A stretch of 63,573 bases of DNA. Source: Candidatus Woesearchaeota archaeon (GTDB taxonomy: Archaea; Nanobdellota; Nanobdellia; Woesearchaeales; GW2011-AR4). The stretch is taken from the NCBI GenBank assembly GCA_016184145.1, contig JACPDF010000024.1, positions 1-63,573 of the forward strand, given 5' to 3'. This document shows positions 29-22,104 of the stretch, one piece after another; position 1 is the stretch's first letter, and the number at the start of each line of letters is the position of its first letter. The translations under genes and the position numbers were made by a program. Under the pieces are notes generated by a model, which saw nothing but the letters and a program-made list of their open reading frames with translations, had not been told where the DNA came from and did no database searches.

Positions 29-176
29 TGACCCCCTAACGTTTTTTTGTATAGTATTGCTGTAAAATTCCTGTTTTAGAATATATTTTGGAGTATATAG
101 TCATATTTAAAGGTTTCGAAAACAAAAGTTTTGCCGCCGGAGATGCAGGCTTTTGCCAAAGCTTGCAGCCTTTACA

Positions 177-366
177 GAGGTTGGTGCGAAATTCTAATTC
201 GTGCAGTGAAATGCGAGTGAGCTTGCGAACTCGCTCACAATTCACGAGCCTTAGCATTGCATCTCAACTTTGCAATACTTTGTATTGCTCAGGTCGCATA
301 TTCCAATCCTGCGGAGCTTTCTGCATTGGCAAAACACGCACAAGCACCGATTTTCGCACCAACCTC
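177..366. mobile_element. MITE-like non-autonomous element (190 bp)
   Basis: Perfect 15-bp terminal inverted repeats GAGGTTGGTGCGAAA (177-191) / TTTCGCACCAACCTC (352-366); flanking direct repeat gCCTTTACA (168-176) / aCCTTTACA (367-375); no transposase. Confidence 0.7.
204..245 (-). repeat. Palindromic repeat family B, copy 1 (nested in the MITE)
   Basis: Reverse complement reads GTGAATTGTGAGCGAGTTCGCAAGCTCACTCGCATTTCACTG, near-identical to 2896-2944 and 9180-9221. Confidence 0.85.
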
Positions 367-415
367 ACCTTTACAACAAAGCTTATAAACAAAAATTAAT
401 TTATTTTACAGTTCG

Positions 416-16032: not shown

Positions 16033-16131
16033 GCCTCTGTAGCTTAGCAGGTAGAGCGTGCGGCTGTTATCTTACTTTTTAGAATTAAGCGAGAAACCGC
16101 AAGGTCGGCAGTTCGAGTCTGCCCAGAGGCG
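16033..16131 (+). tRNA. tRNA-Asn(GTT) with 26-nt canonical intron (16070-16095)
   Basis: GCCTCTG/CAGAGGC acceptor; TGCGG-CT GTT A[intron]A-CCGCA; GGCAG TTCGAGT CTGCC. Confidence 0.92.
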
Positions 16132-16168: not shown

Positions 16169-16254
16169 GGGCCTGTAGTTCAGCCTGGTTAGAATGCTCG
16201 ACTGATAAATTTTTGGAAATCGAGTGGTCCTCAGTTCAAATCTGAGCAGGCCCA
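16169..16254 (+). tRNA. tRNA-Ile(GAT) with 11-nt canonical intron (16208-16218)
   Basis: GGGCCTG/CAGGCCC acceptor; CTCGA-CT GAT A[intron]A-TCGAG; CTCAG TTCAAAT CTGAG. Confidence 0.92.
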
Positions 16255-16459: not shown

Positions 16460-17503
16460 TTGGTGAGAAAAGAGCTTTTTTTAGCGTTGATGGTTATTTC
16501 TATGTTTCTTATTAGCGCATGCGATGTATATAATACTCTTTATGTCAAGCAGCCTGCTATACAGGGAGAGGCTGTGGAGGTTCCTGAGGTCAATATAACA
16601 TTAGAGATTCCTGAAGAAGGGGCAATACCAGAGGAAGAAGCAAAGGAGATAGACGAGGAGATGGAGGCTGCTGAAGAAATTGAAGCAGGCATGGAAGAAA
16701 AGCCGGAAGCAGCAAATGTAATCATAGTTGCTGAGGGTGAAAAAGTAAGCTTAACTCCAAAAGCAGAAGACCCAGACAATGACAAATTGACATTCACTTT
16801 TACAAGCCCCTTGGACAGCAATGGGCAATGGCAGACAACTTATGGGGATGTGGGGGAGTATACAGTCACTATAACTGCAAGCGATGGAACATTAACAGCG
16901 AGCAAGGAAGTTTTAATCATAGTAAAAAAGAAAGAGGAGGCTCCTGTCTTTGAGAGATTTAAACCAATAGAAGCTGCAGTAGCGGTAGAGGAAACAGAAG
17001 CAGTTGATTTTGAGGTCGTTGCATCAGACCTTAACAAGGACGAGCTGTCATACGAATGGAAGCTTGATGGCGTTATGGTAGGGGATGAGGATTCTTATAC
17101 GTACCAGACAACATACGATGATTCTGGAAGCCATACTGTAAAAGCCAAAGTGACAGATCGAATGTTTGACACGGAGAAGATATGGGCTGTTACTGTGGAG
17201 AATGTGAATAGGAAGCCTGTGCTGGAAACAGTTGATGATATAAATGTAGAAGAAACAGACAGAGTTGTAATTGAGCTGAAGGCAAGCGATTCAGATGGGG
17301 ATGATGTAAGCTACAGCATAGATAACGAAAAGTTTTTGCAGGATGGAAATACATTCACATGGAAAACAACTTATGATGATGCTGGCGAGTATACATTTAC
17401 TGTAAGCGCATCTGACGGGGTGGACACAGCAAGCCAACAGGTAAAAGTCGCTGTTGAAAATGTAAACAGGCCGCCAATGATACTTGACATAGTGCAGAAA
17501 TAG
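16460..17503 (+). CDS. Lipoprotein with cadherin-like/PKD Ig-fold repeats
   Basis: Signal peptide with lipobox ISAC; acidic linker; repeats DxDxDxL...WxTTYxDxGxY...ASDG...VxVxNVNRxP. Confidence 0.8.
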   Translation: MVRKELFLALMVISMFLISACDVYNTLYVKQPAIQGEAVEVPEVNITLEIPEEGAIPEEEAKEIDEEMEAAEEIEAGMEEKPEAANVIIVAEGEKVSLTPKAEDPDNDKLTFTFTSPLDSNGQWQTTYGDVGEYTVTITASDGTLTASKEVLIIVKKKEEAPVFERFKPIEAAVAVEETEAVDFEVVASDLNKDELSYEWKLDGVMVGDEDSYTYQTTYDDSGSHTVKAKVTDRMFDTEKIWAVTVENVNRKPVLETVDDINVEETDRVVIELKASDSDGDDVSYSIDNEKFLQDGNTFTWKTTYDDAGEYTFTVSASDGVDTASQQVKVAVENVNRPPMILDIVQK

Positions 17504-17586
17504 GTTTTCTTTTGCTGCACAGCGAGAAAATTAAAAATTTTCTCCGGGTTTGGTAAAGTTTTCACTCCGTTCAAATTGTATGAAAA

Positions 17587-19476
17587 ATGAAAAAGCTGGC
17601 AATAATAACAATCTTATTTTTTATTCTTGTATATTCTGCCAGTTCTTTGAAGACCTTTGAGATAAACGAGACAGACAAAATAAGCCTGGCTCCAAAAGTG
17701 GATGATCCTGATGCTGACAAGCTGATTTACACTTTTACAGAGCCTCTTGATGAGAAAGGGGAATGGCAGACTGCTTATGGGGATGCAGGGGAATATAAAG
17801 CCAAGGTAACTGTGAGTGACGGTATAAACGAGGTCAGCGAAGATGTCCTCATAAAAGTTGGCAAGAAAGAGGAAAAGCCCACTATAGATGATTTTGAGCC
17901 GAAAGAAGATCCTGTAATTATTAATGAAAGGGAAAATGTAAAATTCAAAATAGCGGCTTCTGACCTGAACAAGGACAAGCTAAGCTATGAGTGGAAATTA
18001 AATGACAAGGTTGTTTCCAATGATGGGGAACTTCTTTTTGATACCGGCTATAAAGATGCAGGAGACTATAAGATTTCCGCATCTGTAAGTGATGGAGCTT
18101 CCAAGACAATAAAAATCTGGAATGTTGCAGTTAATGATGTTGATATCGACTCCATTTTGGATCGGATCAAGGATGTAACCGTAACTGAGACAGGGACTGC
18201 AAGCTTGGAGCTGCCTGATTTTGGGAAATACGGGCTAAAGTACAGCATTTCAGAGCCTTTGGGAAATGACAATAAATGGAAAACTGGCTATGACGATGCT
18301 GGGGAATATGGGGCAACTGTAAAGGCGGAAGGAATGGATTTTGAAGGTGAAAAGAAAGTCAGGATTACAATAATTAATAAAGACAGGAAGCCTGAATTCA
18401 TTGGCCTAAAGGATGCGAGCATAAATGAGAATGAGCAGCTGAGCATAGAATTAAAAGCAACCGATACCGACAATGATACGGTGATTTTTTCTGCAGAAGA
18501 CATACCTGAAGGAGCTGAATTGGCCGATAATGTATTTTTGTGGAAGCCAGGATATGATTTCGTGCAGAAGGAAAATGCCTTTGATTATGTGCTTGACAAG
18601 TTCAAATTGCTCAGTAAAAGCGTGGATGTAAAATTCATAGCGCAGAGCGGCAGCCTGAAAGATGGGAAAAGTGTGAAGATTACGGTAAAGGATGCCAACA
18701 GGCCTTTTACCCTTGACATTCCAGAAAGCATTGAGGTGAACGAAGGCCAGGAAATTGCTATCGAGCCGAAGTATAACGATCCTGACAAGGACAAGGTTTC
18801 GTTTTCCTATTCCGGCTTCATGAACAGCAATAAAAAAATAGCTGGATTTAATGATGCGGGGCAGTATATTGTAAAAATTATTGCAAGCGACGGCTATTTT
18901 GAGGAAACAAGGCTTGTAAATTTGAAGGTGAATGATGTCAATAGAGAGCCTGTTTTTGATATAAAGGACAAGTTTGGGGCAGCGGAGAGAGATGAATTAA
19001 AAATAGAGCTTAAGGCAAACGACCCTGACAACGATCCTGTAAGCTTTTCTGCTGTCAGCCTGCCAAGAGGCGCAAGCTTAAGAGGCAACTTATTCGCATG
19101 GGAGCCGGATTTTGACGCTGTAAATGGCACAAAGAAAGAGTTTGGAGTTGAGTTTGTTGCCAGTGACGATAAGAATGAAAGCGCTGCCAAAAAGATAGTA
19201 ATCACAGTCCTGAACAAAAACAAGGCACCGGAAATGATAAGTACGAGCGATAATTTAATTGCGTTGAGGAACGAGCCGACATTATTTGAGGTTAATGTTG
19301 CGGATGTTGATGGTGATGAGTTAACGTATGAATGGGATTTCGGCTTTTTGGACAAGTTTGAAAGCACTAATATGCATCAAAGAATATTTACAGCTGCCGG
19401 CAGCAAGGAGGTCAAAGTGACTGTGAGCGACGGCAAGGAAAGCGTAAGCAAGGTATGGAAGGTTGAAGTTATTTGA
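17587..19476 (+). CDS. Secreted protein with tandem cadherin-like/PKD repeats
   Basis: Signal peptide; about seven repeats of the same motif as the upstream gene; C-terminal PKD-like YEWDFG. Confidence 0.8.
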   Translation: MKKLAIITILFFILVYSASSLKTFEINETDKISLAPKVDDPDADKLIYTFTEPLDEKGEWQTAYGDAGEYKAKVTVSDGINEVSEDVLIKVGKKEEKPTIDDFEPKEDPVIINERENVKFKIAASDLNKDKLSYEWKLNDKVVSNDGELLFDTGYKDAGDYKISASVSDGASKTIKIWNVAVNDVDIDSILDRIKDVTVTETGTASLELPDFGKYGLKYSISEPLGNDNKWKTGYDDAGEYGATVKAEGMDFEGEKKVRITIINKDRKPEFIGLKDASINENEQLSIELKATDTDNDTVIFSAEDIPEGAELADNVFLWKPGYDFVQKENAFDYVLDKFKLLSKSVDVKFIAQSGSLKDGKSVKITVKDANRPFTLDIPESIEVNEGQEIAIEPKYNDPDKDKVSFSYSGFMNSNKKIAGFNDAGQYIVKIIASDGYFEETRLVNLKVNDVNREPVFDIKDKFGAAERDELKIELKANDPDNDPVSFSAVSLPRGASLRGNLFAWEPDFDAVNGTKKEFGVEFVASDDKNESAAKKIVITVLNKNKAPEMISTSDNLIALRNEPTLFEVNVADVDGDELTYEWDFGFLDKFESTNMHQRIFTAAGSKEVKVTVSDGKESVSKVWKVEVI

Positions 19477-19561: not shown

Positions 19562-21112
19562 ATGCCAGCAAAAAAAATTTCTTCTGAGACAGGAAACGGG
19601 GCTCTGGATTTGGCCTTGGACACCATAAAATCAGGGAAGCAGGCCTTGGTTTTTGTGAATACAAAAAGGAGCGCGGAGAAAACAGCAGAGGACATTTCCA
19701 ATAAGATAAAATCAAATGATGAAAAATTAAGAGAACTAAGCGAAAATGCCCTAAAAGCGCTTTCCAGGCCGACAAAGCAGTGTGAAAGGCTGGCAAAGTG
19801 CATAAAAAAAGGGATAGCTTTCCATCATGCCGGCTTAGTTTCCAAGCAAAGGGAATTGATAGAGGGCAGCTTTAGAAATGGGACAATAAAGATAATATGC
19901 GCAACTCCAACTCTTGCCTATGGCGTTGATCTGCCTGCTTTCAGGGCTATAATAAAGGACTTAAAAAGGTACGGGAGCAATGGGCTAAATTACATTCCTG
20001 TTCTGGAGTATTTGCAGATGTCAGGAAGGGCGGGAAGGCCGAAGTTTGACAAGTTTGGAGAGGCTATTTGCGTAGCGATAAGCGATAATGACAAGAAGAA
20101 GCTTTATGAAAGGTATATCCTAGGCGAGCCTGAAGAGATTTATTCCAAATTAGCTGTTGAGCCTGTGCTGAGGACTTATTTATTAAGTTTGATAGCTGCA
20201 AATTTTGCTAATACCAAGAAAGAAATTGTTGATTTTTTTGGAAAAACATTCTGGGCATATCAGTTTGTGGATATGGCCAGATTAGAGCAGATAATAGACA
20301 AGATGCTTGACTTGCTTGAGGAATGGGAATTCATACAGAAGCATGGCCAGGATTTTGTTGAAGCAAATAAAATAAATGACAGGAGAATAAATGCAACAAA
20401 TATGGGGAAAAGGGTTGCGGAATTATATTTGGATCCTCTGACTGCTTACTTCTTTATTGCATGCCTAAGAAATGCCTCTGACAGGAGAATAAATGAGTTT
20501 TCTTTTTTGCAGATGGTAAGCCATACTTTGGAGATGAGGCCTTTGTTAAGAGTGTCAATCAAGGAAGGGGATAAAATACAGGAAGAATTGCTTAAGTTCT
20601 ATGACTTTTTGCTGGAAAAGGAGCCGTCCTTATATGAGCCCGAGTATGAGGATTTTGCCAACAGCATTAAAACTGCTTTAATGATGCATGAGTGGATTAA
20701 TGAAAAGGATGAGGAGTATTTGCTTGAAAATTACAATGCGAGGCCCGGTGAAATAAGGGGCAAATTGGAATTGGCTGACTGGCTGCTGTACGCTTCCGAG
20801 GAGATATCAAGGATTTTGCATTACCAGTACCTAAATAAAGAGATTGTAAAGTTAAGGCTCAGATTAAGGCATGGCGTTAAGGAAGAATTATTGCCTTTGA
20901 TAAGGCTGCAGGATATTGGAAGAGTAAGGGCAAGGAGATTATTTTCCAACAGAATCAAGGATATAAAAGACGTTAAGAATGCTGATTTAATGAAATTAAG
21001 CCAGATACTGGGAAAGCAGGTTGCCTTGAGCGTAAAGAAACAGGTCGGAGAAGAGATTAAAGAAGTTCCTGCCGGCAAGAGAAAAGGGCAGGTTAGTTTG
21101 GAGAAGTATTAA
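19562..21112 (+). CDS. Hel308/Ski2-like helicase, C-terminal part only (no RecA1 domain)
   Basis: ALVFVNTKR (motif IV), IAFHHAGL, ATPTLAYGVDLPA, QMSGRAGRP, HhH IGRVRAR, PIP-like QVSLEKY; no Walker A or DExH; own TATA at about 19531-19538. Confidence 0.85.
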   Translation: MPAKKISSETGNGALDLALDTIKSGKQALVFVNTKRSAEKTAEDISNKIKSNDEKLRELSENALKALSRPTKQCERLAKCIKKGIAFHHAGLVSKQRELIEGSFRNGTIKIICATPTLAYGVDLPAFRAIIKDLKRYGSNGLNYIPVLEYLQMSGRAGRPKFDKFGEAICVAISDNDKKKLYERYILGEPEEIYSKLAVEPVLRTYLLSLIAANFANTKKEIVDFFGKTFWAYQFVDMARLEQIIDKMLDLLEEWEFIQKHGQDFVEANKINDRRINATNMGKRVAELYLDPLTAYFFIACLRNASDRRINEFSFLQMVSHTLEMRPLLRVSIKEGDKIQEELLKFYDFLLEKEPSLYEPEYEDFANSIKTALMMHEWINEKDEEYLLENYNARPGEIRGKLELADWLLYASEEISRILHYQYLNKEIVKLRLRLRHGVKEELLPLIRLQDIGRVRARRLFSNRIKDIKDVKNADLMKLSQILGKQVALSVKKQVGEEIKEVPAGKRKGQVSLEKY

Positions 21113-21129
21113 ATTAGCAATTCTTGAAG

Positions 21130-21861
21130 TTATTTTTTGCCTTTAGTACTATACATATCCATCTGAGTTTTATATGCTGACTTAATCAATTTTTCCGCTA
21201 TTAGAACTAATTTATCCTTTGGTGCCCTAACATTTACAAGAAATTCGTCTCCAGCACTCCCATGAATTCTTTGAACCAAAGAATCATTCTGCATAACCCT
21301 TGTTACCAAATCCCTATCCCTAGTTTCCTGTCTTTCGTTTCTGCTGTTATGACTTAATGCCCTTCCAATAGCCGCTATATGTCTTGTAACCTCATCATAA
21401 TCAGTCAGATCATTCCAGTGATGCATATCATTACAATCAAAAAATAATAGCCGCCTTTGCTGGGTTCTTCCATATTCACTTCGTTCTCTTTCAACACTCT
21501 GTTCCAATTGGAATTGATAGCCATAAGGAGTCAGTGTCCCGGTAGAATGATCGTATCTTTTTCCTTCAATAAGTGTTAACATATCCGCATAAACTCTGGG
21601 ATTGCCACTATGACTATTTAATATTCCTAAATCTGTCTCGAGTTCCTTCAGAGCCATTGCTTCGTCTAATAAAGGAGAACCAGAATACTGAGCAATGCTA
21701 TATGGGCCATTAAACCTTATTTTTATTGGCTTGCCTTCTTCAACTGTCTCTTTCAGTGATTTTGCATTTTTTAAGGCTTCTTGCGCTTCTTTTATACTGT
21801 CGCCTATTCCTACTGAGAGTCCTAATATGAATGGTCCTTTATAAGATGTTTTCATAGTCAA
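21130..21861 (-). CDS. Circularly permuted GGDEF/mCpol-like palm-domain protein
   Basis: C-terminal half has DHSTGTL, FFDCNDMHHWND and RIHGSAGDEFLV; N-terminus has LSVGIG...EAQEALKNAK. Confidence 0.6.
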   Translation of the reverse strand: MTMKTSYKGPFILGLSVGIGDSIKEAQEALKNAKSLKETVEEGKPIKIRFNGPYSIAQYSGSPLLDEAMALKELETDLGILNSHSGNPRVYADMLTLIEGKRYDHSTGTLTPYGYQFQLEQSVERERSEYGRTQQRRLLFFDCNDMHHWNDLTDYDEVTRHIAAIGRALSHNSRNERQETRDRDLVTRVMQNDSLVQRIHGSAGDEFLVNVRAPKDKLVLIAEKLIKSAYKTQMDMYSTKGKK

Positions 21862-21981
21862 GTAATAATATTAAGCCTTTATAAATCTTTCTATTTTTTT
21901 ACTATTTGGGGGTAGTTATAAATTATGCAAGCGATGCACTGCAAGAATGTTTATAAACCGAATATAATTTGCTGGCTTTAT

Positions 21982-22104
21982 GCCCCTATAGTTTAGTGGA
22001 TCATAATGCGAGGTTGCGGTATTTGTGAAAACCTTGCGGCCCGAGTTCGATTATCCCAACGGGAGACCACGAATCCCGGGGATTCGGGAGTCTCGGTAGG
22101 GGCA
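21982..22104 (+). tRNA. tRNA-Arg(GCG) with two introns (37/38: 22020-22030; T-loop: about 22051-22089)
   Basis: GCCCCTA/TAGGGGC acceptor; CGAGG-TT GCG G[11 nt]A-CCTTG; CCGAG TTCGA[39 nt]GT CTCGG. Confidence 0.85.

Follow-up and report, generated by a model that had tools for sequence, protein, structure and literature searches.

The locus and its gene

The DNA considered here is the whole 63,573-nucleotide contig JACPDF010000024.1 of a Candidatus Woesearchaeota archaeon (GenBank assembly GCA_016184145.1), read on the forward strand and referred to below as the window. On its minus strand lies a gene for a protein of 241 amino acids, P0001, which a first-pass annotation made from the sequence alone had read as a circularly permuted GGDEF-type cyclase resembling the mCpol domains. 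Table 1 gives the features of the gene. P0001 is a real, conserved and circularly permuted member of the GGDEF superfamily, and the explanation that best accounts for the data, one we consider probable, is that it is a stand-alone nucleotide cyclase of that family.

Table 1. Coordinates in the window of the P0001 gene and of the parts of the protein discussed in the text
Feature	Position	Strand	Basis or remark
Open reading frame (ORF) of the permuted GGDEF gene	21130..21861	-	
Coding sequence of P0001, 241 amino acids	21133..21855	-	Likely ATG at 21855; full-length family matches
Stop codon	21130-21132	-	
Alternative TTG start	21859-21861	-	Two codons upstream of the ATG
Transplanted strand (SVGIG) and helix (EAQEALKNAK-SLK), residues 9-35, including K32 and K35	21751..21831	-	Last strand and helix of canonical GGDEF; mCpol and GGDEF_GdpP matches, canonical hidden Markov model (HMM), AlphaFold2 (AF2)
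Linker between old C- and N-termini, residues 36-99	21559..21750	-	AF2: short strand 53-56, helices 70-81 and 86-98
First two thirds of GGDEF domain, residues 100-235	21151..21558	-	Canonical HMM positions 8-120, 33.8 bits; VIA
AGDEF motif (GGDEF signature), A201 G202 D203 E204 F205	21241..21255	-	Read from sequence
D140 codon, metal-binding Asp of first strand	21436..21438	-	Aligns with first D of canonical DiD
T157 codon, position of guanine-reading Asp (Ser in Hypr GGDEF)	21385..21387	-	Aligns with D of canonical 'GD'

Translation of the ORF bears out all of the motifs that had been quoted for it, in the order claimed. The stretch LSVGIG...EAQEALKNAK is at residues 13-32, followed by DHSTGTL (102-108), FFDCNDMHHWND (138-149), R196-IHGS-AGDEF (196-205) and IAEKLIKSAY (218-228), and the chain ends 13 residues beyond the last of these helices. 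Residues 100-235 include the DxxTG wide turn, the D140 strand, N148, T157, R196, the AGDEF hairpin and the last helix. In canonical GGDEF proteins the linear order is DxLTGL ... DxD ... GGDEF ... SxGxA ... ALYxAK, and P0001 departs from it in having what is there the last strand and helix at residues 13-32.

Evidence for circular permutation

When P0001 alone is searched against Pfam its sole match is to mCpol (E 0.019; 15.8 bits with a cut-off of 26.4), with residues 12-35 aligned to positions 84-107 of 114, and NCBIfam gives no match for it. Fifty members of the family were also searched against Pfam, of which 19 match GGDEF (best E 5.4e-15) and 25 match mCpol. In these members GGDEF positions 2 to about 110 of 161 map onto the C-terminal part and reach the end of the protein, and residues of about 4-36 are covered by positions 83-109 of 114 in mCpol and 75-107 of 126 in GGDEF_GdpP. 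The N-terminal matches are to the final strand and helix of those two models.

The same division is found with a profile made from A3, our alignment of 98 family members that are about 25% identical on average. Against PDB sequences it gave 46 matches, at least 40 of them to GGDEF chains (best 2.9e-7), with the GGDEF chains at profile positions 54-215 and the mCpol chains 9mnr (OptS) and 9nwn at positions 10-45. Second stretches below the threshold put 'eeAeaAlkeAk' on the C-terminal 'AD.AL..AK' helix of SiaD and PA0575. The only match that is neither GGDEF nor mCpol is DDX41 (E 0.56). A shallow profile, A1, gave matches at chance level only (reverse transcriptase, E 0.094; UGPase, E 1.1), which were rejected.

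The search with a re-permuted sequence that had been proposed as a check was carried out on all 98 sequences, with an HMM of 166 positions built from 15 canonical GGDEF proteins and with the first 62 residues of each sequence shifted to its end. The best stretch ran from HMM position 8 to 119 (medians) for native sequences and from 8 to 158 for the rotated ones, and position 150 or beyond was reached by 0 of 98 native and 68 of 98 rotated sequences, the latter being full-domain matches; when the N-terminal part was reversed as a control the figure was 1 of 98. Rotation raised the score in 95 of the 98. The median gain over the C-terminal part alone was 5.45 bits, as against about 0.1 bit for shuffled N-terminal parts, and in native form 84 of the 98 have a separate N-terminal stretch that falls on HMM positions of at least 120. 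Native P0001 itself gives 33.8 bits (HMM 8-120, residues 100-235) and, separately, 1.7 bits (HMM 139-157, residues 15-33), and on rotation these become a single stretch of 44.6 bits covering HMM 8-157.

Profile homology places the family in PF00990 on three counts, namely the 19 of 50 members with a Pfam match, the A3 matches in PDB and the 33.8 bits of P0001 with the canonical HMM. With HMM coordinates, re-permutation test and structure searches (below) all supporting the circularly permuted GGDEF-type cyclase that had been proposed, we regard it as close to certain that P0001 is a permuted GGDEF homologue.

Predicted structure

AF2 run with the 98-sequence alignment gave a model with a mean predicted local distance difference test score (pLDDT) of 87.3 and a predicted template modelling score of 0.86, having five strands as in the GGDEF core. 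In order the elements are strand 13-18, helix 21-32, strand 53-56, helices 70-81, 86-98 and 110-128, strand 135-141, helices 144-150 and 153-169, strands 193-196 and 204-209, and helix 213-233. The N-terminal block of strand 13-18 and helix 21-32 has pLDDT of about 97, and DSSP assigns residues 13-18 as strand; poor modelling is confined to residues 174-184 (pLDDT below 50) and the tail. On this indirect evidence strand 13-18 may lie in the palm sheet, at the place of the canonical fourth strand.

Structure comparison identifies the GGDEF fold on model residues 98-236 only. Every one of the 38 Foldseek matches listed is a GGDEF-domain entry, and the top one is 6d9m, the Hypr GGDEF of Geobacter. 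VIA-align gave Z of up to 8.8 and placed model residues 98..236 onto 289..407 of PleD and 170..291 of WspR, and in the VIA alignments the first 120 or so residues of the canonical domain are covered and the last 45 or so never are. A wide VIA search made independently of Foldseek had nothing but GGDEF-domain or diguanylate-cyclase entries in its first 33 ranks (Z 8.0-5.0, rmsd 2.6-4.7 over 98-137 residues), with unrelated folds beyond them at Z of 4.7 or less.

Linker helix 86-98 sits where the stalk helix of canonical enzymes sits, and VIA alignments to the stalk-bearing proteins DgcB (6ttr), SiaD (7e6g), 6hbz, DgcZ (4h54) and LapD (3pjw) start at model residues 71-84.

Active site and base-reading position

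Eight residues are invariant in all 98 sequences of A3, namely G16, G18, G112, D140, N148, R196, D203 and E204, and this puts the quoted motifs beyond chance. The apparent retention of metal-binding Asp residues that had been noted for P0001 extends, for D140 and D203, to every member aligned. Also conserved are G202 (97/98), A31 (95/98), K32 (91/98), K35 (87/98) and A201 (85/98).

Alignment to the canonical HMM makes D140 the first Asp of 'DiD', N148 the base-reading Asn and V156-T157 the 'G-D' of the xxGD motif. R196 is the Arg before the hairpin, here with 3 extra residues, and A201-G-D-E-F205 is the GGDEF signature; AGDEF variants can be active. The acidic hairpin pair (D203 and E204) and the first-strand metal Asp (D140) are all present. 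K32 falls on the Lys of 'ALYxAK', the transition-state or phosphate Lys of the last helix, and we read K35 as the second basic residue of that helix, the alignment itself stopping at residue 33. As judged by alignment, the metal-, base- and phosphate-binding residues of the canonical enzymes are all kept.

With regard to specificity, P0001 does not have the Asn plus Asp (xxGD) combination for recognition of guanine, as N148 is kept and T157 stands at the Asp position. Across A3 the base-reading position is Asp in 65, Thr in 25, Ser in 6 and Asn in 2 sequences, with a clear division by size: all 49 proteins of 230 amino acids or less have Asp, and the 49 longer ones have Thr (25), Asp (16), Ser (6) or Asn (2). 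P0001 and its close kin have Thr. In Hallberg 2019 (PMC6456294) Hypr GGDEFs are described as having Ser348 in place of the canonical Asp, and natural Ser/Thr-348 GGDEFs as bearing GGDE[F/Y] exclusively. P0001 has this pairing of Ser or Thr with a D-type GGDE[F/Y] motif, as T157 with AGDEF.

An I-site-like RxxD, R179-D-R-D182, is found 18 residues before AGDEF in P0001, in the loop with pLDDT below 50. An RxxD ending at the conserved D182 column is present in 51 of the 98 members, with a spacing of 9 residues before the motif in 59 of 98.

Family and distribution

The family of P0001 consists of about 100 stand-alone proteins of 200-270 amino acids, and its named records are almost all Woese-, Pace- or Nanoarchaeota (DPANN) genomes. 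Nine of them are close homologues (54-86% identity). An exhaustive search of representatives with P0001 gave 50 clusters at E of 1e-3 or less, of which 34 have a single near-full-length match (204-277 amino acids, aligned from about residue 5-12 to about 211-241) and the remaining 16 are fragments or give partial or split matches. A profile search gave 83 matches; the shorter members bear a precomputed PF00990 label, and several of the relatives are named by NCBI as 'diguanylate cyclase' or 'GGDEF domain-containing protein' of Candidatus Pacearchaeota.

Seventeen loci in species-representative genomes encode the family, under the titles Woesearchaeota, Pacearchaeota, Nanoarchaeota or Nanoarchaeia, 'archaeon' and, once, 'uncultured Methanosarcinales archaeon'. 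Four bacterial loci were rejected as ordinary GGDEFs, since they match residues 127-207 only. A Micrarchaeota protein with an unconventional motif from Sidorov 2026 (MBI5036943.1, with RIFHPSGDEF; PMC13725321) has the canonical order and was likewise rejected. An ESM-Atlas lead to 'viral' GGDEF clusters gave 25 pattern matches on viral contigs, with no relatives of P0001 among them, and was not borne out for the permuted family. A search for fused or longer forms of the family gave only two canonical PAS-GGDEF-EAL proteins, which is weak evidence that such forms are lacking.

We also looked at the phylum in a sample of 301 genomes, consisting of 300 others and the window's own (G000). The A3 profile matches end to end in four of them (G000, G266, G208 and G034) and partially in G262, and the matches in 61 other genomes begin at profile position 40 or later and were set aside as canonical GGDEFs. 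Canonical PF00990 is present in 142 of the 301. These tallies include two genomes flagged as unpublished (G243 and G244), which have canonical matches only, and without both they become 64 of 299 for A3 and 140 of 299 for PF00990. DAC was found in 59 of the 301 genomes, EAL in 7 (5 of them above the cut-off) and PilZ in 4. Set against the 142 genomes with GGDEF, the figures for EAL and PilZ indicate that turnover and receptor components of known types are mostly missing in the phylum.

A single copy of the permuted gene is present in the window's genome (1.02 Mb, 38 contigs, 96.8% complete), which gave no match for canonical GGDEF, PilZ, EAL, HD-GYP (HD_5) or DAC. The P0001 gene is the sole gene of cyclic-dinucleotide-synthase type found in that genome among the types searched.

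Gene neighbourhoods

The surroundings of the P0001 gene are an archaeal-type helicase gene (convergent), VKOR, elongation factor 2, nucleoside diphosphate kinase, surface proteins with PKD repeats and a tRNA-like gene. This is an archaeal housekeeping context, and the statement in the first-pass annotation that no effector gene is adjacent holds good.

The surface proteins adjoining the helicase are two large secreted-looking proteins with PKD, cadherin-like and Ig repeats (16460-19476, plus strand), and the pair is syntenic in two other loci, L002 and L018. The tRNA-like gene (21982-22104, plus strand) is divergent from the P0001 gene and 127 nucleotides upstream of it. It has an acceptor stem GCCCCTA/TAGGGGC, the pairing of which is visible in a computed fold, and a T-arm (CCGAG-TTCGATT...CTCGG) apparently split by an insert of about 39 nucleotides, with perhaps another insert close to the anticodon arm; neither ARAGORN nor Rfam detects it. 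Two further tRNA genes of 99 and 86 nucleotides are detected by Rfam at 16033-16131 and 16169-16254 (plus strand; 58 and 57.7 bits). ARAGORN finds no tRNA in the whole window, and these two genes probably contain introns.

No neighbour is conserved across all 18 loci compared, and synteny is bound to lineages. In the window, L002 and L018 the helicase and surface protein genes accompany the permuted gene, and in the Pacearchaeota group it is leucyl-tRNA synthetase, Cdc48 and an M24 peptidase. Two Pacearchaeota genomes have canonical GAF-GGDEF genes about 4 kb from the permuted gene (L010, 10344-11381, and L013, 10767-11795, both on the minus strand), with full-length matches to PF00990 (E 2e-35 and 7e-38). 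On another archaeal contig two permuted GGDEF genes are in tandem (L009, 2139-2867 and 3007-3666).

One group of loci has a different arrangement, with TctA upstream on the minus strand, then the permuted gene, and directly downstream a CPA2 Na+/H+-exchanger with a TrkA_N domain (L004, 3894-7776; L006, 4677-7578; L017, 1-3483). The antiporter gene follows after a gap of 25-81 nucleotides in all three loci with sequence there; L005 ends before that point. The cyclase of L017 is 26-27% identical to those of L004 and L006, and the antiporters are 63-64% identical. The permuted protein and the antiporter may be a functional pair.

An extended form of this suggestion is that the long branch with Ser or Thr at the base-reading position (31 of the 49 longer members, including P0001) is an archaeal counterpart of the Hypr enzymes, making cGAMP or cyclic di-AMP (c-di-AMP) in place of cyclic di-GMP and controlling cation and K+ homeostasis through the RCK-domain antiporter. 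In its favour, the window's genome has an antiporter orthologue of 50% identity on another contig (C21, 4834-6510), and is without DAC, the usual archaeal c-di-AMP synthase domain. Counted against it are the confinement of the gene link to one subclade and the presence in the antiporter of TrkA_N only, without TrkA_C, which is the domain that binds c-di-AMP in bacteria. We think the extended form unlikely.

Proposed function and the alternatives

P0001 is most likely a stand-alone homodimeric cyclic-dinucleotide synthase, and we think there is a good, though by no means overwhelming, chance that it is catalytically active. We suggest that the N-terminal strand would insert into the palm sheet at the usual place to give one complete active site, and that two protomers would pair, probably through the helical linker in the position of the canonical stalk helix. 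Each protomer would hold one purine nucleoside triphosphate and Mg2+, with D140 and the D203/E204 pair binding the metals, N148 and T157 reading the base, and K32, K35 and R196 holding the phosphates. Each 3'-OH group would then attack the alpha-phosphate of the other nucleotide, and a 3',3'-cyclic dinucleotide would result, serving as second messenger. As Thr157 takes the place of the guanine-specific Asp in combination with an xGDEF motif, cGAMP or c-di-AMP may be made beside or instead of cyclic di-GMP (c-di-GMP). Given activity, a product that is not purely c-di-GMP is a serious possibility, at somewhat less than even chances.

Several observations weigh against an active permuted cyclase. 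Pfam gives no GGDEF match for P0001 alone even at E 10, nor does a six-frame PF00990 search of its genome. From 10 sequences (the close homologues) AF2 produced no usable model (pLDDT 42.9). Every Foldseek E-value is weaker than 1e-3 (best 8.8e-3), which is to be expected if a sequential aligner can use only part of a permuted domain, and VIA's own scale rates a Z of about 8 as 'middling'. Near the active site, the hairpin has its 3-residue insert (7 residues from R196 to D203) and there is an insert of about 13 residues ahead of it, with pLDDT below 50 at 174-184, and catalysis could suffer from either. Thr157 could also mean that function has been lost, as D-to-S swaps are reported to inactivate four of five canonical enzymes in Hallberg 2019 (PMC6456294). 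Lastly PilZ, EAL and HD_5, which are of known receptor or degrading types, were not found in a genome that is 96.8% complete.

The points on catalysis are those that would be made for a catalytically silent GGDEF-like protein, with the fold kept and a nucleotide or partner bound as receptor or scaffold, in the manner of degenerate bacterial GGDEFs, and with no product. Both inserts lie beside the active site, the Asp at the base-reading position has become Thr, D-to-S swaps there inactivate most canonical enzymes (PMC6456294), turnover and receptor genes of known types were not found in its genome, and catalysis-independent phenotypes are reported for some archaeal GGDEF proteins in Sidorov 2026 (PMC13725321). 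However the catalytic positions are invariant or nearly so over 98 sequences with average identity of only about 25%, whereas loss of the DE pair is usual in degenerate GGDEF domains, and the Thr/xGDEF pairing is that of the natural Ser/Thr enzymes that are active (PMC6456294). We therefore see a silent protein as unlikely, while giving it more weight than any of the explanations that follow.

A palm-domain enzyme with some other chemistry would stop at linear pppNpN or carry out another nucleotidyl transfer, its reaction having been changed by the permutation. Its new termini and its linker of 65 residues are near the face where canonical domains meet, and there were the weak profile matches to other nucleotidyl transferases (reverse transcriptase, E 0.094), though from the shallow alignment only. 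The deep alignment matches GGDEF and mCpol chains alone, DDX41 at E 0.56 apart, and for binding base and phosphate P0001 has the residues of a cyclase, which makes this explanation very unlikely.

We give slightly less credence still to a defence enzyme of mCpol or Cas10-palm type, making a cyclic oligonucleotide or an unusual dinucleotide to control an unlinked effector, in the manner of Panoptes or of type III CRISPR signalling. It could draw on mCpol being the sole Pfam match of P0001 and matching half of the 50 members, and on the mCpol chains 9mnr and 9nwn at N-terminal profile positions. However the match of P0001 covers about 25 residues and falls short of the cut-off, while GGDEF accounts for the other 135 residues, the DxxTG wide turn and base-reading Asn among them. 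PADLOC gave no match for the three family members submitted, no relatives are on viral contigs, the gene lies among housekeeping genes, and gene order is kept only within lineages. The earlier description of P0001 as mCpol-like is thus apt for those N-terminal residues, and weakly so, and fails for the remainder, which is GGDEF proper: P0001 is a true GGDEF relative and not an mCpol.

An artefact, either a canonical GGDEF gene altered by mis-assembly or a frameshift or an ORF present by chance, is refuted as far as the data go and has a negligible probability. About 100 proteins from independent contigs have the same architecture. The ORF lies between the convergent helicase gene and an intergenic region upstream, and in public groundwater metagenomes contigs from the runs of two studies span all of it without indels (two contigs covering 20900-22018 and one 21041-22018).

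Origin of the permutation

The permutation most likely arose once. In a quick maximum-likelihood tree a branch with SH-aLRT support of 97 separates all permuted rows from the rest, which is consistent with a single event. The tree was built on 117 core columns shared by its 85 rows, of which 48 are permuted sequences (every second one of 96), 22 are canonical sequences from archaea and 15 are other canonical sequences. The probable route is tandem duplication with loss of both outer ends, which would leave just such a stalk-like helix at the end of the linker as P0001 has.

Significance

GGDEF is among the most studied of signalling enzyme domains, and a natural circular permutation of it is not described in anything that our searches of the full-text literature brought up. 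Archaeal GGDEF proteins are already in print, as of 2026; the permutation, the long branch that Pfam does not see and the Ser/Thr signature of that branch are not, as far as our searches reach. In Sidorov 2026 (PMC13725321) the word stem 'permut' is absent, and the Ser signature is in 0 of its 20 proteins. The long branch, with P0001 in it, is invisible to both Pfam and NCBIfam, and is therefore missed by censuses of cyclic-dinucleotide signalling in archaea.

The permutation shifts the chain ends from the site where all known regulators attach, and so raises the question of how the enzyme dimerises and is controlled; it also offers protein engineers a natural template. The window's genome is a clean test case, having one gene of synthase type and no known receptor or degrading domain found among those searched. 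Sidorov 2026 (PMC13725321) asks what archaeal GGDEF proteins produce and what reads those products, and P0001, a small soluble protein with a putative specificity residue that would predict something other than plain c-di-GMP, could provide an answer.

Comparison with known systems

The first-pass annotation held that c-di-GMP signalling is not established in archaea, and this has been partly overtaken. Sidorov 2026 (PMC13725321) reports GGDEF genes on verified archaeal contigs (isolates, DPANN metagenome-assembled genomes and others), and diguanylate cyclase activity for some of the proteins in assays in Salmonella and E. coli, and canonical GGDEF is in 142 of our 301 phylum genomes. P0001 resembles those proteins in being encoded on an archaeal contig and in being short and stand-alone, several of them being 'GGDEF only'.

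The mCpol domain (PF18182; Panoptes OptS, 9mnr) has in common with P0001 the short 'SxGIG...EAxxALxxAK' spacing of strand, turn and helix, and is also a small stand-alone palm enzyme. P0001 differs in that its match covers about 25 residues below the cut-off rather than the full model, in that the remainder is GGDEF-specific, and in that no effector neighbour or defence context was found, there being no genomic link to a CARF-type or membrane effector or sensor.

The Hypr GGDEFs (GacA of Geobacter; 6d9m, 5VS9; Hallberg 2016/2019) are like P0001 in combining a hydroxyl residue at the base-reading position with a D-type motif (GGDEF and not GGEEF), and 6d9m is the top Foldseek match. P0001 differs in having Thr and not Ser, in its permuted topology, in the lack of a receiver domain and in its archaeal host.

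With the canonical GGDEF cyclases (PF00990; PleD 1w25/2v0n, WspR 3bre/3i5b, DgcB 6ttr, SiaD 7e6g and the Idiomarina phytochrome cyclase 5llw) P0001 shares the fold and the active-site positions, namely the DxxTG turn, metal Asp, base-reading Asn, Arg before the hairpin, xGDEF hairpin and Lys of the last helix, and also a stalk-like helix just ahead of the DxxTG turn. It differs from them in its rotated order, with the last strand and helix coming first, in the lack of a sensor domain, in having AGDEF with a 3-residue insert after the Arg, in Thr for the guanine-reading Asp, and in having its RxxD (R179-D182) 18 residues before the motif, where the canonical spacing is short.

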